From the IMG/VR virus record IMGVR_UViG_3300025639_000003: 64,000 nt of DNA. One strand, written 5' to 3'. Positions within the stretch are counted from its first letter, which is position 1. Each line of letters starts with the position of its first letter. The notes under the pieces are model-generated. The model saw only the letters and a program-made list of their open reading frames with translations. It searched no databases and was not told where the DNA came from. Origin of the DNA: a virus. Below, piece by piece: positions 4,654-63,736 of this stretch. The translations under genes and the position numbers were made by a program.

Positions 4654-6372
4654 TTAATAGTTAAATTCATATTTTAATCTTGCATTTCGATCATTGTAAT
4701 CTACGGAACTCCCCAACATCCTCCCTTTATTATTAGTTATATTATTCAATTCAATGTTAAATTTATGATTCGGATAAGGTGAATAGACGTAGCCTATATC
4801 AAGTTGCGAATACCCATCATTATGATCTTGTATTCTAATATCCGATGTATCTTTTTTTGGAAGTTTTTGCGCTTGCATCCCCCACCGATGTGTAGCATAG
4901 AAATTTTTATATTCTACCCGAGTATCAATTTTTAATGGAGTCAATTTCGAGATATAATCTAAATTGGTTTCCCCATATAAGTATTCTGCGAATACATCGA
5001 ATGCGAAATCGTCACGAGTATACTTTAAATTAATATTAGAACCGTGGATATATCCTGAATCCGCATTATCTACTTTAAATTTATATTCCCCAAATTCATC
5101 AAGAACGTCAGATGGAACTCTAACTATCAAGTCATCTAGATGTGTAGAAAATATTGAAGCATTAATGTATTCTGAATTGAATCCTAATACATACTTTACA
5201 GATCTTTCTTGTTTAAGATTTTGGTTAGGGATTTCGGTAGCAGAATCAGATATAGCTTCAGACAAATTTGGAACGGTCGGATATTTAAATCCTTCAGAAA
5301 TAGATGCATATATACCTTTATACTCTATTCTAGCACCCATATTGAATGAATCAAAATGCTTATCAAAATTATTATACCCTGACCCAGATATTACGGTATA
5401 GTCATATAATGCAAACGCAGAATAATCAAAGTCTCCCCAATAGTTCCTATAATTTACATCAAAGGAATTAGAAAAAACTTCATAATCTGTAGTCAGTCCT
5501 TTATTATCATATTCAATTAGTTCAAGTTTGTGGTCGGAACCTAATGTTAAGTTTAGTCTATTATAATAATATATACTATTAGCCTGAAATATATCATTAT
5601 CAGTTTCTACATATTTACCTTTTTTGTTGATCAACTCTGAAAAGTTATTATAAGATAAATTTAGATCAAGGTTATCTAAATAAAAAGTCTTATATGCTCC
5701 CGTGAAATACTGTTCCTCATACACATAATGTTGTCCATTTTCAAATTTATCAGTCCTATCAATATCATCTGACCTTGAATGTATAAACTTAAATCCTTTA
5801 TATTCAAGATACCCAGCTTTTTGGTTATAATTAGAATGCGGATTATTATCTACGCTGTAAATATTATTAAATACTGCTCCCAATGATAGGTCGCCATTAG
5901 TATATACTAATGATCTATTTCCATCAAATTGTTCAGAATTTACTGTATCCCAATCTATTGAAAATTTAGATTCATTAATTCCAAGTTGCCTATTAACTGT
6001 CCCGCCTAATGAATTATTGTCTAATACATCATCGATTGATATTGCCGTGACAAATTCGTCAGGAATAAACGAATAATATTGATTCGGTCCAGACCTGAAT
6101 AAAGAGTTGGTGAAATCTATTCCGTCTAATTTTAGTAGAATTTTATCGCCTTGAAGTCCCTTTACGATAGGTTGTTTAAATCCTGGAGTTGTCGCTTGAA
6201 TTTGGACATTTCGATCTTCAAATAATTCTACTTTAGGAGTGTGCACTAAAGTAGAATTATGACTATCATATTGTATTACTATAGGATTTAATTCTTCTTC
6301 TCCGTATACCGATATTGGTAATATTAATAATAATACTTTAGTTATTTCTCTTATTCCCAATGGCGTCACCAT
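4654..6372 (-). CDS. TonB-dependent receptor-like outer-membrane protein
   Basis: Signal peptide; plug motif PIVKGLQGDKILLKLDG...FRSGPNQY; EGFKYPT; amphipathic strands; C-terminal YEFNY. True start may be near 6360. Confidence 0.85.
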   Translation of the reverse strand: MVTPLGIREITKVLLLILPISVYGEEELNPIVIQYDSHNSTLVHTPKVELFEDRNVQIQATTPGFKQPIVKGLQGDKILLKLDGIDFTNSLFRSGPNQYYSFIPDEFVTAISIDDVLDNNSLGGTVNRQLGINESKFSIDWDTVNSEQFDGNRSLVYTNGDLSLGAVFNNIYSVDNNPHSNYNQKAGYLEYKGFKFIHSRSDDIDRTDKFENGQHYVYEEQYFTGAYKTFYLDNLDLNLSYNNFSELINKKGKYVETDNDIFQANSIYYYNRLNLTLGSDHKLELIEYDNKGLTTDYEVFSNSFDVNYRNYWGDFDYSAFALYDYTVISGSGYNNFDKHFDSFNMGARIEYKGIYASISEGFKYPTVPNLSEAISDSATEIPNQNLKQERSVKYVLGFNSEYINASIFSTHLDDLIVRVPSDVLDEFGEYKFKVDNADSGYIHGSNINLKYTRDDFAFDVFAEYLYGETNLDYISKLTPLKIDTRVEYKNFYATHRWGMQAQKLPKKDTSDIRIQDHNDGYSQLDIGYVYSPYPNHKFNIELNNITNNKGRMLGSSVDYNDRNARLKYEFNY

Positions 6373-7045
6373 AAGCTAAGGACAATGGCAGTAGTTTAGA
6401 TAAAGGCAAATCAATCTTAATGACGTTGACTTTCATATCAGGATCAATTAATAATGCAGATAAAAACCTATGGTGCCCGTCAATAATTCTATTATCTGAT
6501 GAGACTATTAATATTTTTGATGTTATTAGTTTTTTAGCACCATCTACTCCAGATTTAATTATAGTGCCTAACCCTTTATCAAAATATATTTGCTCTTGAA
6601 TCGGAGTTAGATCTCTAGCTTTAATAGATTCACTTTTAACTGAAGTTATATCATCTTTTTTTGACCCATCATATACTTTTAACCCCAACTCAATAAACCT
6701 TTCAGCCTTTGCCCCAGATAACCCCTCAGGGAAAGGATCGCTCACTTCGGTTTCATTAGCATATGGTGCATTGATGTCAAGTTTACCTTTCATTAATCTT
6801 TTCTGAAACTTTTTGACATCCTTAGAAGTTATCACAGGCATGTCTTTCCGTTTCGTATGCCCTTTATATGCGAGTTTCTGTGCGAGAACATAATTAGAAT
6901 CAAAATTTGGAATATCCTCATCTAACGTAGGGAGTTTAGACAATGCATATTCTTTAGCATCTTCTAATGACGTTGCGATTAATTCGAACTTACCTGCAGC
7001 AGCACCGCCACCGCCTTCTATTAAATAGCCTTTAAACGATTTCAT
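6338..7045 (-). CDS. ParB/Srx-like domain protein with capsid-targeting-like leader
   Basis: LTPIQ...VSSDNRIIDGHHR; N-terminus MKSFKGYLIE. Confidence 0.7.
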   Translation of the reverse strand: MKSFKGYLIEGGGGAAAGKFELIATSLEDAKEYALSKLPTLDEDIPNFDSNYVLAQKLAYKGHTKRKDMPVITSKDVKKFQKRLMKGKLDINAPYANETEVSDPFPEGLSGAKAERFIELGLKVYDGSKKDDITSVKSESIKARDLTPIQEQIYFDKGLGTIIKSGVDGAKKLITSKILIVSSDNRIIDGHHRFLSALLIDPDMKVNVIKIDLPLSKLLPLSLAYGDAIGNKRNN

Positions 7046-7084
7046 ATGATACGCATTTCCTAGAGTGATTAATGAGTATATTTA

Positions 7085-7675
7085 TTATTCTCCAACAATC
7101 ATATTATAGATTTCTTTCCAATTATTTACCTGATATGCGGAACCCTCATACGACTTATTGTAATCGTGATTCATCAATATTCCACGCAATCCTAAGTTTA
7201 TTCCCGTATCTACATTTTCTGGCTTATCTTCAATCCAATATACTTCTGTATTTTCATATTCTTTAAGAGCTTCATCCTTATCTGCACCAGTATCTAATAT
7301 TGTATATTTCTCAAACACGGTATTTCCGAACATTTCCCTTAGATTTTTAATTCTTAATATACCAGCATATTGATCGTCAGTTTGGGACGTTATTGCGTGA
7401 AAAACATATCCATGTTCTTCGTGCAATTTCTTAACCCATTTGATTGAATCTCGGAAAGGAGGCAACTTTCTCATCCAAGCACTTTCATTAAACATCCTGA
7501 CTAATCGTTTAGACTCTTTACTTTGTATGTCATATTTCACGTGAACAGAGTATACATCGGGTTCGCCATTAATTTCATACCCATGCCGATTCATCCAACT
7601 GTCAAATGCATAACCCCAGTCAAGGAGAACGCCATCAACATCAGTAAGTATCACTTTATTGTTAATGTCAATCAT
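7085..7675 (-). CDS. HAD-superfamily 5'(3')-deoxyribonucleotidase-like phosphatase
   Basis: ILTDVDGVLLDW motif I, WIEDKPEN motif IV. Confidence 0.85.
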   Translation of the reverse strand: MIDINNKVILTDVDGVLLDWGYAFDSWMNRHGYEINGEPDVYSVHVKYDIQSKESKRLVRMFNESAWMRKLPPFRDSIKWVKKLHEEHGYVFHAITSQTDDQYAGILRIKNLREMFGNTVFEKYTILDTGADKDEALKEYENTEVYWIEDKPENVDTGINLGLRGILMNHDYNKSYEGSAYQVNNWKEIYNMIVGE

Positions 7676-32817: not shown

Positions 32818-34110
32818 TTATTTAATCTTTAGATACATTGAGTTTTTATCCGAAACTTTCATAGAAGCAAAAAAACCAAATTTGATTGTCTCTTCGAAGT
32901 TTTCCATTATAAACTTTAAGAAGTCGGCACATGTTATGTAACGTTGTTGGAACAGCTTGTCCATTTTTATGAAGTCGGGTTCCCAGAGAACATCATTATC
33001 TTTTTTAACAATAACATGTTTGTACTTATTATATATCGATAACGCTCCTTCCAATAGGATCTTAGTTGGCGATATATCTGTACCATTAGGAACTTTTCCG
33101 CCACTATATGCATCCCAAGTATTCTTATCAATAGCACCCATAGCAAAATTTTCCTTCTTCATGGTTCCTTCATAAAATAAATTAGGATTAGTTTTTGCTG
33201 CTCTGGCATTAGCTTTAAATGTGAATCCAGACTTAGTTTCAACAAATACAGATTTACAAGTTCCGGCGATTTGTACTCGGTTCAGTGAAAAATCGTAATC
33301 TAACTTTCGTTTTTTATATTTAATGGGTTCGATTAGTTCTATAGATGACTTACCCGATGCCTGTTTTAATGAAATAGGAACGATATTCTTAGTAACATAA
33401 TTTTTACGAATCCAAAGATTTAGTTCTTGGATATGCTTCATTTCCTTTAGATCACTATCTATATTTCCCACAAATGCTGTATTGAATAGCCATATATCGG
33501 CAGGATTCCAATTATCGGCAGAAGCAGGTGCACCTAGAATCTTAGCTTTGGCGTAAATTTTAGCTGAATTTACATCCCCCTGAAACTCAAAAACCATATC
33601 TCCCATTCTTTTAATTTTTCTGAATGAAATTAATTGTAGGATTGCGCTGGAGTAATATAAGGACTTGTAAACTGATGAGTCTGCATCCCAATCAGGCAAT
33701 TGCTTAATAGCAGATTCTTCGTCAAGTGTGCTACCCGATTCATGATAGTGTTTGAAGATTATAAGCGATAATGCTTCTTTACAACGAGTAGTCTTATGCG
33801 TATCCGATTTTCCTCCACCAGCATGATTGAAATAATTATTAATCGATTTGGCAGAACCGACTAATTTAATAATCTTGCCGTCAGTTTTAATGAAAACTGA
33901 ATCCTCACCCTTTCCAACTTTCAATTCTTCCGCTTCATCATTTGGTGCAGCCAATTCTATATCTTTCCCCATAGAACCTTTTACTAATTTATTTGCCGTT
34001 TTTCTCAACACCAATTTGTGTCCAGGACCATATTCTGTCTGGTTAACTATAGTTGCTTCGTCTAGCTTAAATGTTGAGAGGAATCGAGTGAAAGGTAATA
34101 AAGTAGCCAT
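32818..34110 (-). CDS. Hypothetical protein, possible PD-(D/E)xK nuclease fold
   Basis: DNWNPADIWL...PISLK. Confidence 0.5.
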   Translation of the reverse strand: MATLLPFTRFLSTFKLDEATIVNQTEYGPGHKLVLRKTANKLVKGSMGKDIELAAPNDEAEELKVGKGEDSVFIKTDGKIIKLVGSAKSINNYFNHAGGGKSDTHKTTRCKEALSLIIFKHYHESGSTLDEESAIKQLPDWDADSSVYKSLYYSSAILQLISFRKIKRMGDMVFEFQGDVNSAKIYAKAKILGAPASADNWNPADIWLFNTAFVGNIDSDLKEMKHIQELNLWIRKNYVTKNIVPISLKQASGKSSIELIEPIKYKKRKLDYDFSLNRVQIAGTCKSVFVETKSGFTFKANARAAKTNPNLFYEGTMKKENFAMGAIDKNTWDAYSGGKVPNGTDISPTKILLEGALSIYNKYKHVIVKKDNDVLWEPDFIKMDKLFQQRYITCADFLKFIMENFEETIKFGFFASMKVSDKNSMYLKIK

Positions 34111-34143
34111 GAATATGCAGCCTGTAGTTAAGTGTAATATTAT

Positions 34144-34151
34144 TATTTATA
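34144..34151 (-). promoter_or_regulatory. T4-type late promoter TATAAATA
   Basis: Exact consensus upstream of 34110. Confidence 0.6.
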
Positions 34152-34167
34152 CCATTGCATTATGCAT

Positions 34168-34192
34168 AAAAAAGGGGAACAAAAAGTTCCCC
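34168..34192 (-). terminator. Rho-independent terminator
   Basis: GGGGAAC/GTTCCCC stem followed by a T-run on the minus strand. Confidence 0.8.
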
Positions 34193-34222
34193 TATCGTAC
34201 TCAGATTAGCTTAAAAGGTATA

Positions 34223-35407
34223 TTATTGAACTTGAAGTTCAACTGCTACGATACCATCTTTAGTATATTTTTTATGTTTTCCTGTAGCTTTAGCTTCAAT
34301 GAATGAGTCTACAATTTTAAGTTCGCAGTCATATTCATTTTTGAAGTATTCATAATAACTTCCTTTAGGAGACCAATTAGATACAAGATCTTTGAGTGCT
34401 TTATCTCCAGTAAAATAGAATGAATCAAAGTATACAAAGTTTTTACCTTTCGTGTATACTTGAAGTTTTGCATCTGGACCCCAATCATCTTCATTTTTCA
34501 TCAATTTAACGATATCAGATGCTTTGAGTTTCTTTGCTTCAGTAATTACTGAGTCAATCAGATTTTCCTTTCCCATTTTAGCTAAAGCAGCTTCTACTTC
34601 TTTATCGGACACCTTTTTCATTTTAATGATTTTCTCAGCTCTTTTTGGGTCTTTTCTAAAATTCTGGACACCATCGTATTGTCTAATACGAAGGAAATCG
34701 TTGATCAACTTGAATTGTGCCATAGGGGAAAGTTTAGAAACAGCTGATTCTTCTAATTGCTCACTCAACCCTCTTTTTTTCATTTCCTTTTCAACTTTCT
34801 TTAGCATGAATTTCGTAGAAGGAGCATCCTGATCAAGATCTTTAAATTGTTTGAGTACTGCCTTTAATTTATCGTCAGTGTATTTGGATGTGTCATTCCT
34901 TCCTTCATCCAGCTCAATAGATTCTTTAAATTGTAATGCGGTTCCCTTATGATTCCACCATGTCTCATCACCATTAATGGTACTTGACATTTTCTTTTCT
35001 GAAAACCGATCTTTGAGTTTTTTCTTAAAGAATTCAATTGCTGCATCCGATGGCGAACTTTCTTCCGTTATATCTCCCATAACGTGTGCATCATCAATAT
35101 CAAAAATCTCATTCACATGTTCTTCTATTTCATCGGACTCAACAACAATCTTATTTTTCTTGCGCCAAAATAATACAGTAGCAGCATCATTAACCTCATC
35201 TGCGTACTTACCTGCTTTCTTACCCTCAGGATTCGCTTTCATTGCATCAGATGCATCCTTTTGGATATACTTTAGGGAAGCATCAGGAAGATCCCAAAAC
35301 CTGACATTCTCAATATGAGAACCGCCACGAGGTCGACCATCTCCTGGGATCCATGTAGTGGCTTCATTTAAATTTATTTGTTTTATTATGTCTTTAAATT
35401 TTATCAT
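34223..35407 (-). CDS. Multi-module probable capsid-internal protein
   Basis: Several (L/I)xE sites: LNE|A, LDE|G, LEE|S, ITE|A. Confidence 0.55.
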   Translation of the reverse strand: MIKFKDIIKQINLNEATTWIPGDGRPRGGSHIENVRFWDLPDASLKYIQKDASDAMKANPEGKKAGKYADEVNDAATVLFWRKKNKIVVESDEIEEHVNEIFDIDDAHVMGDITEESSPSDAAIEFFKKKLKDRFSEKKMSSTINGDETWWNHKGTALQFKESIELDEGRNDTSKYTDDKLKAVLKQFKDLDQDAPSTKFMLKKVEKEMKKRGLSEQLEESAVSKLSPMAQFKLINDFLRIRQYDGVQNFRKDPKRAEKIIKMKKVSDKEVEAALAKMGKENLIDSVITEAKKLKASDIVKLMKNEDDWGPDAKLQVYTKGKNFVYFDSFYFTGDKALKDLVSNWSPKGSYYEYFKNEYDCELKIVDSFIEAKATGKHKKYTKDGIVAVELQVQ

Positions 35408-47556: not shown

Positions 47557-48270
47557 TCAATGGTCTCTACGTTTGTTGAACACACATATAAATAACAAAT
47601 CTTCATCGTCGCTAGTGTTGAATACTTTATGGTGCTCTCCGTCAGGAATAGTGAACGTTTTGCCTTTTTCAATAGGAAACGGTTTTCCTGATATTTCTAT
47701 AACACCAATCCCACTCAAGAACGTATACACTTCCTCCATTCCTTGATGACAATGCCCCTTTGTTTCTTGCCTTGGATGTAATGTGGTGGTAGAAACGGTT
47801 AAAGCATTCAACTCAGTATTGTCAATAATAGTATAAACTGCATCATCCTTTACAGTTGCGCCAGTTAGTGGCGGAGTTCCTTGATTTTCTACAACTTTCT
47901 TTTTAAGTCCATTAGAACTATAATTATGTTTTCGGGCATTATAATAAGTTTCTATGTTAAGGTTATCTCCAGTAAAATGTTTTCTTTTATAGTCTTCCCC
48001 TATAAATCTGATATCCGGAGTGACAAGTTTCAATAATTCTATCAATTCACTTTCATCATTATACGGAATGATCCTATCAACATATTTCACAGCTTCAAGT
48101 TGAACATATCTCTCAACTATACTTTGGACAGGATATCTACCATACTTAAACGGATTTACATTTAATCCACATATAAGATAATCACAATTTTCTTTACACT
48201 CTTTTAGCATCGCGATGTGCCCTGTGTGTAATAAGTCAAATGGACTACAAGTAAACCCTATCTTCATCAT
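47557..48270 (-). CDS. Sugar/glycerol-phosphate cytidylyltransferase fused to a cupin domain
   Basis: FDLLHTGH, GEDY, YSSNGLK; cupin HCH..MEEVY...HHKV. Confidence 0.85.
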   Translation of the reverse strand: MMKIGFTCSPFDLLHTGHIAMLKECKENCDYLICGLNVNPFKYGRYPVQSIVERYVQLEAVKYVDRIIPYNDESELIELLKLVTPDIRFIGEDYKRKHFTGDNLNIETYYNARKHNYSSNGLKKKVVENQGTPPLTGATVKDDAVYTIIDNTELNALTVSTTTLHPRQETKGHCHQGMEEVYTFLSGIGVIEISGKPFPIEKGKTFTIPDGEHHKVFNTSDDEDLLFICVFNKRRDH

Positions 48271-49208
48271 TTAAACTCCGCATCAACCATAATTTCAGTC
48301 AATAGTGCCATCGTATTAATTTCTTGGTCGGCAACAAATGCTGACTTATATTGGTAGTCCGCCAACGTGACAACTATTTGCGGAATACTTGATGGCGTAA
48401 CTAGATCGTGTAACGATTCATATAACGTTCTGAAAAACGGAGCAACCTCACCGTCAATATTTTGAGCGACCCATTTCCGAACTACACTGAATTCCTTTGC
48501 TTTTAGTGCATCAGTTAAAACTTTAAAGTTAGACTCCTTTTGATTAATTAAAATCCCTGAATCTATTTTTCCAGTTACACTATACCTCTGAAGTTCATTT
48601 AAAATACGACGGTTATCAGGGAAATGTTTCATTACCATTTCCGCAACAACTTTATCTTCAAATTCAATATTTTCTTTTTGAAGGATTGTCTGTACTCTTT
48701 TAAAAAAACCGTTCGCAATTTTAGGCTTTTCTTTAGTCGTTATCTTAAATTCCACTACAGAACACCGACTATGAAGAGGAGCAATAATTTTATTTACGAA
48801 ATTGCAGGTCAATATAAACCCACAATTAGAACTATACTCCTCCATAAAATTACGAAGAGCAGGCTGTACTGTTTCCGCATTTAAATAGTCGGCTTCATCG
48901 AGAATAACATATTTACGCCCACCTGCAAGCGATAGACTAGAAGCAAAATTCTTAATCTTTGTTCTAAGAGTGTCAATAAGGCGACCCTCATCAGAACCGT
49001 TGATGACGATATAATCTGCCCCCAATTCTTCCAACATAGCTTTAGCAATGGTGGTCTTACCTACTCCAGCACTGCCTGTGAGTAGTAAATTTGGAACGTT
49101 ACCACTATCAACGAACTTCTGAAAAGTAGTCTTCAATTCATTAGGAAGAATAGTGTCCGAAACATTCTTCGGACGATATTTTTCCACCCATAAAAAATCA
49201 TCACGCAT
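48267..49208 (-). CDS. gp44: Clamp loader large subunit
   Basis: WVEKYRP, GSAGVGKT, ILDEAD, SRC; start MRDDF. Confidence 0.97.
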   Translation of the reverse strand: MRDDFLWVEKYRPKNVSDTILPNELKTTFQKFVDSGNVPNLLLTGSAGVGKTTIAKAMLEELGADYIVINGSDEGRLIDTLRTKIKNFASSLSLAGGRKYVILDEADYLNAETVQPALRNFMEEYSSNCGFILTCNFVNKIIAPLHSRCSVVEFKITTKEKPKIANGFFKRVQTILQKENIEFEDKVVAEMVMKHFPDNRRILNELQRYSVTGKIDSGILINQKESNFKVLTDALKAKEFSVVRKWVAQNIDGEVAPFFRTLYESLHDLVTPSSIPQIVVTLADYQYKSAFVADQEINTMALLTEIMVDAEFK

Positions 49209-49221
49209 AATATATCCTTTT

Positions 49222-49593
49222 TTAAATTGGCAATTTTGCTCCAGCAATTTTAGGCGAATTAGCATTCTGCACAAGATTTACGGAACAATCGGGTTCAGCG
49301 ATATTAATAGGTAACGAGTTACCATCACAACTCGAACGTTCCTTCTTATTCAATCTATTGCGTCTAGATTCTTCATCCCAACAAACTATACATTTATCTC
49401 GCGTATCATTACACGTCTTACTATCACGGTTAGATGCACGATAAAATTCTACAAGAAGTTTAACATTACCGCAACAGTCGCATCTCTTTACTGCTTCTTT
49501 ATTTCCGTATAGAGTCGATACAATTTTATCTCTTGCAGTTTCCCGTGTCACGACCGGAGGTTTCCCTGCTCTTTTACTCATAATATTCTCCAC
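49222..49593 (-). CDS. Zn-finger hypothetical protein
   Basis: CDCC...EFY...CIVC. Confidence 0.5.
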   Translation of the reverse strand: MENIMSKRAGKPPVVTRETARDKIVSTLYGNKEAVKRCDCCGNVKLLVEFYRASNRDSKTCNDTRDKCIVCWDEESRRNRLNKKERSSCDGNSLPINIAEPDCSVNLVQNANSPKIAGAKLPI

Positions 49594-49631: not shown

Positions 49632-49907
49632 CTACTTTCCCGTAATTGCTTCATAAAGTTCTTCAAGGTCAGAATTTTCAGCTTTAACTTCTGCCATACT
49701 TTGGTTATGATATATTTTTGCCATCTTAGTAATATACTTTTTAGGAACTTCAGTTCTACTTGAAGTTTCCTCTACAATATCCTTCATTAATTCTCGCTCG
49801 GAATCAATACGTGACATTGACACTGATAGTTCGTTTATTGCATCAAAAATTGCCTTTCTGGTTTTTGGATCACTTGGTATAATAATATTAGTCATTTGAA
49901 CCCTCAT
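49632..49907 (-). CDS. dsbA: DsbA-like double-stranded DNA-binding protein
   Basis: Helical pattern ...KIYHNQ...E..LEELYE resembling T4 DsbA. Confidence 0.65.
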   Translation of the reverse strand: MRVQMTNIIIPSDPKTRKAIFDAINELSVSMSRIDSERELMKDIVEETSSRTEVPKKYITKMAKIYHNQSMAEVKAENSDLEELYEAITGK

Positions 49908-50559
49908 TATAATTGCTACCTGCTTCGTTTGCTACCCAATATTGTACAGACGTGCCTTTAAAGTGAGAAATGCCTTGTTTAGACATCGTAACATCATAGT
50001 CTTGAGTCATGAATTTGAAGTTCTCGACCTTGAATACAAATTCAAATTCCGCATCAGTGGTAGAATTTAACTCATGAGAAAATTCATTACATGTAGGATT
50101 TTTAGTATCAGTTGCAACCAAATGAATCAACCCATTACCACGAACAACAATTTCAGGCAACCCCAATTGATTTGCCCCATCAATTACCTTTTTCAAATCC
50201 TCATTACGAAGACTAAATTTAACTTCCTGAGAAGGCAAGTCTAAATTTTGCTTAGGAGGTTGAGTTACCATAGAAGGATCAGCATAAGTATATCTTGATT
50301 TATTAGTTCCCTCACTAATAATGACCGAAGATTCGCCAAATGAATAGTCAGCATCATTAAATAGGCTAGAAAGACCTAAGAATTGATTTAAATCGTATAT
50401 AGCAAAATCTTTACTGAATGTTTCGTCTATATTTGCTTGAGCAAGAATATTCTTTTGCTCAGACACAGTCCGTAAAGTATTGCCGACTTTAACTGCAATG
50501 CTCGGATTAATTGATGCAAAATTCTTAAATACTTCAAACGTTTTCTCAGTAATTTTCAT
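49888..50559 (-). CDS. gp45: Sliding clamp
   Basis: KNFASINPSI, FAIYDLNQFL, FKVENFK, YWVANE. Confidence 0.95.
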   Translation of the reverse strand: MKITEKTFEVFKNFASINPSIAVKVGNTLRTVSEQKNILAQANIDETFSKDFAIYDLNQFLGLSSLFNDADYSFGESSVIISEGTNKSRYTYADPSMVTQPPKQNLDLPSQEVKFSLRNEDLKKVIDGANQLGLPEIVVRGNGLIHLVATDTKNPTCNEFSHELNSTTDAEFEFVFKVENFKFMTQDYDVTMSKQGISHFKGTSVQYWVANEAGSNYNEGSND

Positions 50560-55524: not shown

Positions 55525-56085
55525 TTAACTTTTTTTCAAAAAATCGTTGGTAATCCATTCCAAAACAGTATTAGTATCCTCTTCCGTTTCGTGGTTAAAC
55601 GTTTTAATGATGCCTAACTCCTCCCCGAAGAGCGTCATTTTAGGTCCAAATTCATCAACTACATTTTTACATTTAGTTTTAGTCGTCTGTATAAATTTAT
55701 CGCTTTGATTGGACCCACGTTCTTTATATCGTTTCTCCCGAGTTTTATCAGAAACAGTTAAATGTATTATCGTCAAATCATCGCCACATGTTCTAAAAAA
55801 TTCCCTACTATTAAGACGGTCTCCTTCGCCTATAATTATCTCATCAGGTTTAGTTTTGATCCATTCTATTGCTTTAGGTGCAACAGCCATACTCAAACGA
55901 TCAGTTCCTGCATATACTCCTTCTCCATCATACTTACCCAAAATTCGAATATTACCTGACCTTTCTGTATCTAGTAAATCGGCAACCCTTTCCTTTTCCC
56001 AAGAGTTACTAATATTGGTTCTTATAGCATTCATAAGAGTAGTCTTGCCAGTTCCAGGCATCCCGATCATATAATATATCTTCAT
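55525..56085 (-). CDS. P-loop nucleotide kinase of a DNA-modification cluster
   Basis: GMPGTGKT, GTDRLS, EGDRL, RGSNQ. Confidence 0.75.
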   Translation of the reverse strand: MKIYYMIGMPGTGKTTLMNAIRTNISNSWEKERVADLLDTERSGNIRILGKYDGEGVYAGTDRLSMAVAPKAIEWIKTKPDEIIIGEGDRLNSREFFRTCGDDLTIIHLTVSDKTREKRYKERGSNQSDKFIQTTKTKCKNVVDEFGPKMTLFGEELGIIKTFNHETEEDTNTVLEWITNDFLKKS

Positions 56086-57500
56086 GTAAAAAACCCCTCT
56101 AGACTAGATTTCACCTCATATGCCTCAGGGTGATATTTTTCAACAACATTCTTACCCATTTTTGATTCTAAATAATCATACCATTCATTATCGCCCCACA
56201 TTTTAGGGGAAACTCCATTCCAAAAAGGTTTCCATAATGGGTGGGTTTTATTTGTTCTTCTAGAATCAACGTAGTTCTTTCTAGTATTTTCATATTCCCA
56301 TGAACCCAATTTATCCATATCTTCGCGAAAATAGAATACTAATGACATTCTCAAAAAATCATCGTCTCCAGAATCTGGTGCATCTATAGGCGTATTAGCA
56401 TGAATTATACGCATATTATCAATTAATAAAAGATCTCCAGGACGGCAGTTAATTGCCGCACGAACTTCAGGGCAAACTAGATAACCTCCTTTCCAATTCT
56501 TTCCATCTTTAGTTATTACAGTAAGATTTGAGAATCCTTCATTCAATGAACCCGCATCTCTATGGCATGCCATACGAGCATTTCTATCTGCAGTCGTCGT
56601 GTTCACAGTTATAGTTGTAAAAGTTGTATCCTCTCCAATTAAAAATTTATTATCCAACCTTTTAGCATATTCATATTGCCTATCCCAACGAATCGGCATT
56701 AATTTTTTAAATTCTGACTCAAGTTTCCTTGCAAATGGGTAGCATTTTTTAAATGCTTCCCTATTATGATCAACATAAGCAGTGGCTCTGCCATACGGTA
56801 TTCTAGGATATCTTCCATAAAATCCAGCAATACCTGACCATATTGGGGCAGCATATGATGTATCGGAAATATAATTTTCCGAAATACGTTTAGCACATTT
56901 ACTCGCTTTATCGATATCCATGATCTTCAATTCTTCAATGAGAGTTGAAAAAAATGAAGAATAATTTCCATAGGTTTCTTCTACTTTAGTTCTTAACCAA
57001 ACACCCCCACGATTAACGTGCGTTGAACACTCATGTTTTTTCTTAATGTCTTCAAATCTATCAGAACCATCAATTGGTTTTGGTTGACCTGAAATAAAAT
57101 AATCTAATATTTCTATCTGATATGCCGTAACCCAATCTCTATTTCCAGACTTTTCTGATCTTGGACCCGCAGCCATACCTCTATTATTCGACTCAACTGC
57201 AGCATCAAATAATCCTTCAAATGCCCCAACTTGCTCATCATGGGTAAACACGTTCTTACGAAATTTGAATGCTACATCATCCTCAGTAAGATCATCAGAA
57301 CCTGTGATAGCTTTTTTTGGTAAATAAAAATCAGCATCACTATCAACAACTATATCATAAAAATCAGAATCTACATATTTCCCAAGAAGATCGTTTCCAT
57401 TTGAAATGAACTTCGAGACATAAACATCTTGCCCCTCATCGCCCTTATATTTTTGCCAAACGTGATTTCCAATTTTAACTTCTTCCATAATTTGCCTCAA
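56082..57500 (-). CDS. TET/JBP-family 2OG-Fe(II) dioxygenase
   Basis: FTTITVN, HRD, GFSNL, GGYLVCPE, RPGDLLL, IIHAN, RMSLVFYFRE. Confidence 0.85.
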   Translation of the reverse strand: MRQIMEEVKIGNHVWQKYKGDEGQDVYVSKFISNGNDLLGKYVDSDFYDIVVDSDADFYLPKKAITGSDDLTEDDVAFKFRKNVFTHDEQVGAFEGLFDAAVESNNRGMAAGPRSEKSGNRDWVTAYQIEILDYFISGQPKPIDGSDRFEDIKKKHECSTHVNRGGVWLRTKVEETYGNYSSFFSTLIEELKIMDIDKASKCAKRISENYISDTSYAAPIWSGIAGFYGRYPRIPYGRATAYVDHNREAFKKCYPFARKLESEFKKLMPIRWDRQYEYAKRLDNKFLIGEDTTFTTITVNTTTADRNARMACHRDAGSLNEGFSNLTVITKDGKNWKGGYLVCPEVRAAINCRPGDLLLIDNMRIIHANTPIDAPDSGDDDFLRMSLVFYFREDMDKLGSWEYENTRKNYVDSRRTNKTHPLWKPFWNGVSPKMWGDNEWYDYLESKMGKNVVEKYHPEAYEVKSSLEGFFT

Positions 57501-57520
57501 AGAAATATATTTAATATGTT

Positions 57521-57549
57521 AGTATAACGTACATTATCCCGAAAGTCAA
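57521..57549 (-). promoter_or_regulatory. Sigma70-type promoter TTGACT-N17-TATACT for the TET gene
   Basis: -35 overlaps the upstream stop codon. Confidence 0.65.
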
Positions 57550-58697
57550 GTAAAAAACTTATCAATCGAATTAATTCCATAATTATTACTGAAACAATCC
57601 CATTCATTATCCATCAAAATAACCTCTCCGGTTTCACGATAATGATTCTGTTTAATGGGTTGAATGCCCACATCCCATGGGTTGTCTTCTAATCTCAAAT
57701 ACTTAGGTAAACAATCTTTACGCATTTCCCAGAATATATCGAATTTTTTGCCCCATTCTAATTCGGCATATTTTATACGATTATACATCATATCCATATA
57801 AACATTAGGATAACGTCTTTTTGGTCTATACCACGACTTATAACAACATAGAGTTGATTCTAGAGTGAAATATGAAACATCCGGATGATCTATACGTTCA
57901 CGTGCGTCTTCAAGTAACTTCTGTCCTTCCATAGTCAACCATTCAACCATATCTGTATCGTATGTCACCTTTTCTTTCCACCAATCCAAATCGTCGCGAC
58001 CCAATACTTTACATATACCGTTTCGATGGGACTTTGAACCGCTCATATCTTCTAGAAAAAGATTATTGCAATCTAAATTTAAACCTTGTATTCTCAGATA
58101 TTCAAGATAAGAAAAGGTTGATAATCTACCGAACGACATAAAATTATTGCGAACTAAGTCCCAAGTCATCTCGAAATTTTTTCCTACATCATCCGTATTA
58201 CATACAGAATTAAACATAGCTGTTTGACTTCCAAATTTAGCTACATTCTCTTTATATGATTGTACGCACTGAGGAAACCCTGTTTTTCCTACTTTAAAAT
58301 ATTTGCGATCTAGGTCCCAACCACTCCCCACTTTATACTTATGTTGAACTCCGTTCCACCACTCGTTAAGGTCTTCAATTTCACATTCTTCAAGCGAAGG
58401 ATACCTTTCAAATATTTGCCAAGTGGTCACAATATTTTGGGAACACCCATTAATAAATGCAATCCATAAACGCTGCTCTTGGTCAAGATTAAATTTCCGA
58501 GTTAACCAAGGCATAGCAAAATACACGCCACCAGGATGAGATGCATATTTTAAATGAAACTCATAGAACCTTAGAAATACTTCTCTTCGATATTGCGGCA
58601 ATCTAAAATCAAAGCCACGTTGTAAATCTTGAACTTCGGAAACGCCTTTTAATTCAGACCCTCTACATAAATTTTTCAAGCGTTGCCCTCTTATCAT
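57546..58697 (-). CDS. Amino acid:DNA transferase / alpha-glutamyl-putrescinyl thymine pyrophosphorylase-like protein
   Basis: FGRLSTFSYLEYL, SGSKSHRNG, FTLESTLCCYK, RRYPNVY; gene context; clade uncertain. Confidence 0.65.
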   Translation of the reverse strand: MIRGQRLKNLCRGSELKGVSEVQDLQRGFDFRLPQYRREVFLRFYEFHLKYASHPGGVYFAMPWLTRKFNLDQEQRLWIAFINGCSQNIVTTWQIFERYPSLEECEIEDLNEWWNGVQHKYKVGSGWDLDRKYFKVGKTGFPQCVQSYKENVAKFGSQTAMFNSVCNTDDVGKNFEMTWDLVRNNFMSFGRLSTFSYLEYLRIQGLNLDCNNLFLEDMSGSKSHRNGICKVLGRDDLDWWKEKVTYDTDMVEWLTMEGQKLLEDARERIDHPDVSYFTLESTLCCYKSWYRPKRRYPNVYMDMMYNRIKYAELEWGKKFDIFWEMRKDCLPKYLRLEDNPWDVGIQPIKQNHYRETGEVILMDNEWDCFSNNYGINSIDKFFT

Positions 58698-59436
58698 CTA
58701 AAAAATAAAATCCATCATACGAACTACCCAACTTAAAATATTCCGTTTCAGTTTCATGTTTTCCCACAATGGCAGCAAAATATACTGCGTTTCTGTGCCT
58801 AAAGGCAGCTTTTATGATTGAATACCCGAAGTTCATATACAGCCAGTCGGAGTAACCTTTAATATAATCATCAGTATTATTTACTTCACAATCAAAAATT
58901 TTACCATATTTCTTACCGTGAATCTTCATAGAGTACGAAATAGAAGTATCAGTCCACACCACCAATTTAGGTTTAGTTGAAAACGCTCCATCAAATATAG
59001 TTTTCCATTCACGTGTAGTCCGTATTATACTTGAATTGGGGAAATCCATAAATTTTAAATCTGAATGGGTATTATATAAATCGTTGGCATTAGAACAAAT
59101 TACCGTTACATTCGATGGGAAATTGCTAGTAGATAAATGGTCTACACAGCTGCGATCAAGCTCATTAACTATATGGGTCTTCACTTTAAAGATTTTTTGA
59201 ATTATTAGAGTTTGTATACCAATACCAGACATAAACTCTAATACAGAATATTCTCTATCTTCATCAATAATATCCTTTAACAGCCATTTAGTTGCATATG
59301 CTTTACATGCAACTAAATCTGGGCGAGATGTGGCGTAATGAATATATGACCGATTGTATAAATTTTTATCTTCTTCATCTTTTAATTTGATATTAAAATT
59401 CAAATCCCACTCATTACATATTCTAGCAATCCTCAT
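58663..59436 (-). CDS. SAM-dependent methyltransferase-like protein
   Basis: Motif I VLEFMSGIG, acidic NELD, FMDFP. Confidence 0.55.
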   Translation of the reverse strand: MRIARICNEWDLNFNIKLKDEEDKNLYNRSYIHYATSRPDLVACKAYATKWLLKDIIDEDREYSVLEFMSGIGIQTLIIQKIFKVKTHIVNELDRSCVDHLSTSNFPSNVTVICSNANDLYNTHSDLKFMDFPNSSIIRTTREWKTIFDGAFSTKPKLVVWTDTSISYSMKIHGKKYGKIFDCEVNNTDDYIKGYSDWLYMNFGYSIIKAAFRHRNAVYFAAIVGKHETETEYFKLGSSYDGFYFLDDKRATLEKFM

Positions 59437-63196: not shown

Positions 63197-63736
63197 TTAT
63201 GAATTATGTACAGTTTTACGGTTCTTCTTATTCCGTTCGGCAGTTTCATAATTTTCAATAAACTCAGTCATATATTCTTGCGATCCGGAACTTTGCTTTA
63301 TATCGTCCCCATAATTTACCGACTTATCATGGGTTTGCCGATCAGAAGTCGCCCCTGAAATATTTGCGTTTTCAGTTGCCTTATATTTTGTGTATAGATA
63401 TTTCTTTTCTTTTTGTATTCTGCGCAAAAATGCATAATATATGATTTGGGTGAAATATGCAAAAGGGTTGGTTGATTTTTCAGGATTAAAATTATCAATA
63501 TATTGGAGACAATTTTCTATACCATCTCCCACCATTTCATCACGAAAACTATAATTAGCAAAGTTTGGTCTGTATGATAAGTTATTTGCAATCTTCATGA
63601 TACATTCAGCCACATATGATGGAATTTGGGGTCGGGCATTTCCGCTATTTGTCGCTTCAGACACGTTCCCTTTATATTCGATCATTGCTGCTAAAAAGTC
63701 TTTATTATTGACATAATGTGTAGTTTTCTTAGCCAT
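63197..63736 (-). CDS. gp55: Late transcription sigma factor
   Basis: HYVNNKDF, DEMVGDGIENCL, NPFAYFTQI.YYAFLRRI. Confidence 0.97.
   Translation of the reverse strand: MAKKTTHYVNNKDFLAAMIEYKGNVSEATNSGNARPQIPSYVAECIMKIANNLSYRPNFANYSFRDEMVGDGIENCLQYIDNFNPEKSTNPFAYFTQIIYYAFLRRIQKEKKYLYTKYKATENANISGATSDRQTHDKSVNYGDDIKQSSGSQEYMTEFIENYETAERNKKNRKTVHNS

Follow-up and report, generated by a model that had tools for sequence, protein, structure and literature searches.

The 64,000-nt stretch of IMG/VR virus record IMGVR_UViG_3300025639_000003 that we analyzed (the window) belongs to a T4-like marine phage and carries a T4-like replication/recombination module (UvsX, gp41, gp44, gp62, gp45, gp46, gp47, and gp55), and its polymerase, split into the halves gp43A and gp43B, is nearest to cyanomyovirus gp43 (60% identity). 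A group of minus-strand genes encodes a P-loop nucleotide kinase, a TET/JBP-type dioxygenase (TET), an ADDT-like amino-acid:DNA transferase, and a protein of an unnamed family with a methyltransferase (MTase) fold (Table 1). A first-pass annotation had proposed that the last three of these proteins share a clamp-binding type of C-terminal tail with gp43B, whose gene lies outside 56082–59436, and that they ride the gp45 sliding clamp. Our analysis supports this proposal: the tail is conserved, is shared with gp43 and gp55, and probably serves as a gp45-binding short linear motif.

The identities of TET and of the ADDT-like protein rest on Pfam matches (Table 1). The iron ligands of TET (H313, D315, and H367, that is, HxD plus a distal histidine) are invariant in 30 homologues. 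The MTase-like protein matched Pfam at the sequence level below the cut-off, and a PDB sequence search with its family returned nothing useful. Its AlphaFold2 (AF2) model has a predicted local distance difference test score (pLDDT) of 90.4, with the last six residues (<50) as the sole low-confidence segment, and the top Foldseek matches are all S-adenosylmethionine (SAM)-dependent MTases (E 1e-9 to 1e-7, TM ~0.45–0.53). Residues E67, G71, and G73 of its glycine-rich motif I are invariant. The MTase-like gene shares 35 nt (58663–58697), read in a different frame, with the ADDT-like gene as its start is annotated; if that annotated start is real, the codons of the MTase tail would also encode the first ADDT residues.

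Translation confirmed that all four C-termini fit [ST]-[LI]-[ED]-x-F-[FM]. This pattern, which was set after the data had been inspected, matched exactly four of the 93 open reading frames (ORFs) of ≥60 aa in the window, each time at most one residue from the C-terminus, and had no internal copy in any of the 93; the claim that no other protein in the window ends in this way therefore held. Composition-preserving shuffles (n = 20,000) produced one C-terminal match in 52 instances and two or more matches in none. The codons, stop codons, and flanks of the four tails are all unlike one another, therefore the tails are not a DNA repeat, and a recombination scar was ruled out on the same grounds. 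The tail is under selection, which acts on the peptide rather than on its coding DNA. Set against the PCNA-interacting peptide (PIP) box, the four tails have the aliphatic residue at position 4 (L or I) and the aromatic pair at positions 7–8 (FF in three tails, FM in the MTase-like protein), and they have R, K, N, and R at position 1 where the PIP box has glutamine. Glutamine at this position is only occasional among homologues.

Table 1. Positions of the features in the window and, in the last row, of the baseplate hub genes in six other genomes.
Feature	Position	Strand	Basis or remark
TET/JBP-type 2-oxoglutarate–Fe(II) dioxygenase (5-methylpyrimidine dioxygenase)	56082..57500	-	Pfam Tet_JBP (PF12851), 57.4 bits, cut-off 34.9
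TET tail KSSLEGFFT	56085-56111	-	coding
ADDT-like amino-acid:DNA transferase (aGPT-pyrophosphorylase superfamily)	57546..58697	-	Pfam ADDT (PF18724), 66.5 bits, cut-off 26.2
ADDT-like tail NSIDKFFT	57549-57572	-	coding
MTase-like protein (class I SAM-methyltransferase fold, unnamed family, 257 aa)	58663..59436	-	AF2 and Foldseek
MTase-like tail RATLEKFM	58666-58689	-	coding
gp43B, C-terminal half of split family-B DNA polymerase	40830..41951	-	Pfam DNA_pol_B
gp43B tail RSTLESFFS	40833-40859	-	coding
gp43A, N-terminal half of split polymerase (exonuclease and start of polymerase domain)	42266..43765	-	Pfam DNA_pol_B_exo1, DNA_pol_B; no tail
gp45 sliding clamp, proposed tail receptor	49888..50559	-	Pfam gp45-slide_C, 49.6 bits
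gp44 clamp-loader large subunit	48267..49274	-	Pfam Gp44_lid, AAA; no tail
gp62 clamp-loader small subunit	46559..46972	-	Pfam Phage_clamp_A; no tail
P-loop nucleotide kinase 3 (5-hydroxymethyldeoxyuridine DNA-kinase type), same pathway	55525..56085	-	Pfam Ploopntkinase3, 54.9 bits; no tail
gp55 late sigma factor	63197..63736	-	44% identity to C48C1 gp55; no clamp epitope, basic C-terminal stretch
Baseplate hub protein (PF12322)	C48C1 115098-115805; G001 90022-90771; Cr30 133694-134395; DLP6 135667-136368; S-SSM5 6454-7164; P-TIM68 5899-6618

The proposal depended on the tails being conserved in homologues, and this proved to be the case for all three enzymes. In TET, [ST]L[ED]xFF followed by 0–2 residues ends 117 of the 120 best homologues (63–100% identity), and the alignment shows conservation of a YHP block and of L467, F470, and F471, with a variable stretch between the block and the tail. 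When diverse TET representatives were inspected, the long form (~440–470 aa) was nearly always tailed, and most of the ~300-aa core-only forms were tail-less. Approximately 69 of 120 ADDT family members carry the tail, which a variable linker separates from a conserved W[DE]CF.N block; a tail-less subclade ends directly after the block. Likewise, 28 of 41 members of the MTase-like family end in TL[DE]xF[FLM], after a conserved GFYF and a variable linker. The recurrent form of the motif is thus x-[ST]-L-[ED]-x-F-[FML] plus 0–2 residues, borne on a linker that is flexible and varies among homologues. In AF2 models the tails are weakly helical and of low confidence (pLDDT ~53–64 for the TET tail), as expected of a linear motif. 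Because of the margin in the shuffles and this conservation in homologues, a chance origin of the four window tails is untenable, despite the post hoc pattern.

We then took a census of protein families over 1,508 clustered ORFs from the window, 80 IMG/VR contigs that a TET profile had picked out, and three phage loci from GenBank. The tail was present in 83 of 84 TET proteins and in 17 of 18 gp43 proteins, the exception being the gp43A half in the window. It was found in 24 of 39 gp55 proteins, in the form DSDLSxF[LF]EE, and in 32 of 45 ADDT proteins. Two GNAT acetyltransferase families (16/24, the remainder ending SLEKF, and 11/14), two TET-associated glycosyltransferase (TAGT) families (6/7 and 6/6), and a GT1 glycosyltransferase family (7/7) were also tailed. 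A real tail was seen in a single P-loop kinase (1/36) and in no UDP-galactopyranose mutase, for which four of seven proteins matched a loose pattern and were discounted. No tail occurred in gp44, gp45, gp46, gp47, gp62, UvsW, RegA, or the glutamine-amidotransferase (GATase)-like family. The last family (~220 aa, 38 members, for example L063:7725-8387 and L022:11416-12030) usually lies beside TET and never has a clamp-type tail; nearly all its members end in [ED]DLQ plus 0–1 residues.

Whole-genome censuses gave a similar roster. The tail was on gp55, gp43, TET, and a D12-class Dam methylase in C48C1; on gp43, ADDT, GNAT, TET, and gp55 in G001; on gp43 (ATLDSFFA), TET (ATLGDFFV), and TAGT (DLSSFFN) in DLP6; and on gp43, a TAGT-like protein, and TET in Cr30. 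The C48C1 Dam methyltransferase gene (L090:14480-15364; 33480-34364 in the record) lies directly downstream of gp43, and its product ends ESTLDAFFG. On the sequences examined, the tail is confined to gp43, gp55, and eight unrelated families of modification enzymes (TET, ADDT, two TAGT, GT1, two GNAT, and MTase-like), plus this Dam methylase. Its carriers are hence the polymerase, the late sigma factor, and enzymes that are expected to act on polymeric DNA, not precursor-making enzymes or other replisome proteins.

The loose pattern also matched scattered other ORFs in these four genomes, and the sole recurrent extra was the baseplate hub protein, which ends in G[LIM]xxFF plus 0–1 residues in six T4-like genomes (Table 1). 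We set the hub ending aside as structural, given that the PF12322 domain reaches the last residue. Such look-alikes would be the precedent for regarding the likeness of the tails as coincidental or purely structural, with fold-terminal hydrophobic residues and no common function. This explanation is strongly disfavored, to the point of being scarcely credible: no shuffle gave two matches, nine unrelated folds are tailed after variable linkers, the tail lies outside the fold with low pLDDT, and it is present or absent by lineage.

What ligand, then, would the tail have? T4 gp43 ends in SLDFLFG and T4 gp55 in SLDFLYEAND. In agreement with what the first-pass annotation gave as known, the hydrophobic-acidic termini of gp43, gp55, and gp33 are experimentally defined and interchangeable gp45 ligands in T4/RB69, borne on divergent linkers (PMC2988020). 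The tails described here resemble this epitope in lying at the extreme C-terminus, in being hydrophobic and acidic, in following a divergent flexible linker, and in being common to polymerase and non-polymerase clients. They differ in that the clients here are base-modifying enzymes rather than replication or transcription proteins, in that the consensus is SL[ED]xFF rather than SLDFLF, and in the loss of the epitope from the gp55 of the window. The polymerase most likely holds the sliding clamp by the same peptide.

We also predicted the complex of a gp45 trimer with TET residues 438–472, using alignments of sequences from the window and from viral contigs only. The interface score (ipSAE) was 0.41–0.42 in three runs; controls in which the partner or the clamp was replaced scored 0.02, 0.00, and 0.00. 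Of 80 solved complexes, 58 attained the score mark, as did 2 of 110 mismatched pairs; scores of ≤0.60 count as weak passes. In the predicted complex, the confident contacts of TET are residues 463–468 and 470–472, that is, the tail, on one gp45 subunit, and the contacted gp45 residues would be 32, 35–39, 102–109, 175, 194–197, 208, and 210–216. The check suggested earlier, folding gp45 with the terminal peptides, thus placed the TET tail on one clamp subunit (0.41 versus 0.02 for the best control), and this lends weak support to docking on the clamp.

The tail might instead bind another replisome hub (gp44/62, gp32, or gp59) and recruit the enzymes to sites of replication without clamp riding. 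The comparative data point to a common ligand for gp43, gp55, and the enzymes and do not say which ligand it is, and the gp45-TET score is weak. We nevertheless consider another hub improbable, since the gp43, gp55, and gp33 tails are experimental gp45 ligands, gp55 is not known to interact with gp32 or gp59, and the fold puts the tail on gp45, with a control protein in the place of gp45 scoring 0.00.

If the enzymes share the ligand of the polymerase, the tails within a genome might be expected to match. In the window, the polymerase tail TLESFF stands beside SLEGFF (TET), SIDKFF (ADDT-like), and TLEKFM (MTase-like), and a match between polymerase and enzyme tails within a genome was also seen in DLP6, Cr30, C48C1, G001, and L154. 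Polymerase tails that stray from the FF consensus are matched by like changes in the enzyme tails. In Cr30, gp43 ends ADLSSLFD, the TAGT-like protein SDLSKLF, and TET GATLF; in L154, a 220-kb T4-like metagenomic contig, gp43B ends ITLDDLFG and TET ends NSLDDLFG. The L154 TET gene is a short form (366 aa) that lies between the halves of a split polymerase (484-aa N-terminal and 293-aa C-terminal; L154:8550-13293). The contigs of P0300 and of P0348, a fusion protein described below, are too short to include the polymerase.

Tail-less homologues were found in other kinds of phage. No tail is present on the TETs of S-CBWM1 and of podovirus HTVC112P, a small phage in which TET lies beside a ParB gene, or on P0238, a member of the tail-less ADDT subclade, whose contig carries RecT, ParB, and a Mu-type portal and is not T4-like. 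The phages of these three homologues are not T4-like and have no replisome of the T4 type: the window encodes the gp45 clamp and the gp44/62 loader, and the phages of the tail-less homologues that we examined lack them.

This distribution bears on two further possibilities. Bacterial β-clamps also bind short hydrophobic C-terminal peptides, hence the tail could target the host β-clamp (DnaN) or another host factor. The β-clamp motif QL[SD]LF fits none of the window tails; only the Cr30 variants DLSSLF and DLSKLF come near, being somewhat like it. The tails lack the leading Q, mostly end in FF, and are of the very type found on the phage polymerase, and a clamp and a loader are both encoded by the phage itself. 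Moreover, homologues in phages without gp45, which would depend on host clamps, have no tail. A host target thus seems very unlikely. Secondly, C-terminal hydrophobic peptides can act as protease tags, and the tail might be a C-terminal degron, which signals proteolysis or timing, or some other feature, unrelated to tethering, that early/middle proteins happen to have in common. Neither the essential replicative polymerase nor gp55 would plausibly carry a degron, the motif is that of the T4-type clamp epitope, and its distribution tracks DNA-acting enzymes and T4-type replisomes; we give this option hardly any weight.

Several observations weigh against a clamp-binding tail. Firstly, at the variable tail positions of gp43 and TET in 12 dereplicated genomes of the marine clade there was no co-variation (4.08 observed versus 4.08 shuffled, p = 0.56). 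The expectation that enzyme tails co-vary with gp43 tails was therefore borne out at the coarse, lineage level, in the two divergent lineages Cr30 and L154, and failed at the fine level within the marine clade. Secondly, the 5-hydroxymethyldeoxyuridine (5-hmdU)-type kinase also acts on DNA and was tail-less in 35 of 36 cases. P0348 (L156:1259-3235, 658 aa) is a natural fusion of TET/JBP and P-loop nucleotide kinase 3 that ends ADLSEMFG; by its example, kinases that stand alone and have no tail may form a complex with TET or travel with it. Thirdly, the Dam methylases of S-SSM5 and P-TIM68, whose gp43 tails are SLEFLFG and NLELFFT, have no tail; an extension of tailed enzymes to ordinary cyanophages was accordingly unsupported. 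Fourthly, the gp55 of the window lacks the hydrophobic-acidic epitope and ends in the basic ..NKKNRKTVHNS. The loss extends to its whole subclade, the 24 tailed gp55 proteins of the census coming from related contigs, and makes one ask by what means late transcription in that subclade is linked to the clamp. Fifthly, the complex score counts as weak support, and it may arise in part because the predictor remembers the RB69 clamp-peptide complex, which has been solved.

The last such point concerns the known precedent. T4 α-glucosyltransferase (α-GT) reportedly binds gp45, a finding attributed to Sommer et al. 2004, and no other modification enzyme is known to do so. It ends in FDIITK, without such a tail, and we ruled it out as a tail-bearing precedent; therefore its binding mode differs. 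The binding of α-GT to gp45 was re-confirmed in a 2026 study, in which it was not the main determinant of glucosylation levels (PMC13216743). The T4 enzyme is alike in being a phage modification enzyme bound to gp45 and in the idea that modification follows replication, and unlike in being a single enzyme, not a whole pathway, without a polymerase-type tail.

Taking these points together, we think it likely that the shared tail is a gp45-binding short linear motif of the gp43 type, on enzymes of post-replicative hypermodification. By this tail, hypermodification is probably tied to clamps that sit on freshly replicated DNA. The earlier claim that the modification enzymes ride the clamp is, in our view, supported by the conserved tails, their sharing with gp43 and gp55, the coarse co-variation, the tail-less non-T4-like phages, and, weakly, the predicted complex.

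Evolution would have appended the tail to those enzymes of the phage hypermodification pathway that act on polymeric DNA. The gp44/62 complex, as established for T4, would load gp45 trimers onto newly replicated DNA. Like the polymerase tail, the C-terminal peptides of TET, the ADDT-like enzyme, and the MTase-like protein would then dock in the hydrophobic C-face pocket of a clamp subunit. Tethered in this way, the enzymes would slide along and modify bases soon after synthesis, either at the fork or on clamps that stay behind or are loaded at nicks. The likely chemistry would have TET oxidize a 5-methylpyrimidine, the kinase phosphorylate it, and an amino acid enter by displacement through the ADDT enzyme before further tailoring, following published 5-hmdU pathways (PMC8989533). 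More speculatively, since a trimer has three pockets, successive pathway enzymes might share one clamp as a tool-belt. In that case the gp45 trimer might be a mobile assembly line, on which a dioxygenase, a transferase, and a methyl-, acetyl-, or glycosyltransferase dock on the three pockets of one clamp and modify DNA processively behind the fork, a phage-evolved analogue of DNMT1-PCNA; we regard this extension as possible but doubtful.

DNMT1, UNG2, and other proteins bind PCNA by a PIP box, and archaeal C-terminal PIP boxes have the form Qxx[LIVM]xx[FY][FY] (PMC6881253, PMC7225939). The likeness to DNMT1-PCNA lies in a modifier held on a trimeric clamp via a short motif in which an aromatic pair is preceded, three positions earlier, by a hydrophobic residue; the tails here fit xxx[LI]xxF[FM]. 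The differences are the missing leading glutamine, the gp45 family of clamp, an independent origin, and several successive pathway enzymes rather than one. Another comparison is with the ParB-dependent phage 5mYOX T-dioxygenases, for which a ParB-like partner may stabilize the enzyme on DNA, as the authors suggest (PMC13229309). These, too, are TET/JBP-family enzymes with a DNA-associated partner, and the tail-less HTVC112P TET adjoins a ParB gene. Unlike the system described here, however, the partner is ParB-like, not gp45, and there is no polymerase-type tail interaction; the TET of the window is of the long type (~470 aa) of T4-like phages. In non-T4 phages, ParB-like partners of TET may be an alternative way to keep the enzyme on DNA.

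Clamp-binding tails and clamp-tethered DNA modifiers (T4 α-GT/gp45 and DNMT1/PCNA) were already known. Our literature search, which was incomplete for subscription journals, brought to light no earlier report that polymerase-type tails occur on phage TET/5mYOX, ADDT, TAGT, GNAT, or MTase proteins, and they go unmentioned in the key papers on these systems. Hypermodification must be fast and near-complete to shield new DNA from host nucleases. If our reading is true, a clamp tail on at least eight unrelated modification families would be a simple answer to how post-replicative enzymes manage this, with the enzymes tethered to the clamp left by replication, and the gp45 tool-belt would extend beyond replication and late transcription. 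There is also a practical side. Recombinant phage TET and glycosyltransferases have been C-terminally His-tagged (PMC8256090). Such a tag would mask a clamp tail, and the enzymes could become more active or processive in vitro if the matching clamp and loader were supplied. Searches of T4-like genomes for new modification enzymes that act on DNA could also use the tail as a marker.

Two further ORFs in the window deserve mention. A 96-aa ORF (41941-42231) fills the gap between gp43A and gp43B. On the minus strand, a 327-aa ORF at 14893-15876 matches Glycos_transf_1 (E 1.6e-11) and ends without a clamp-type tail.

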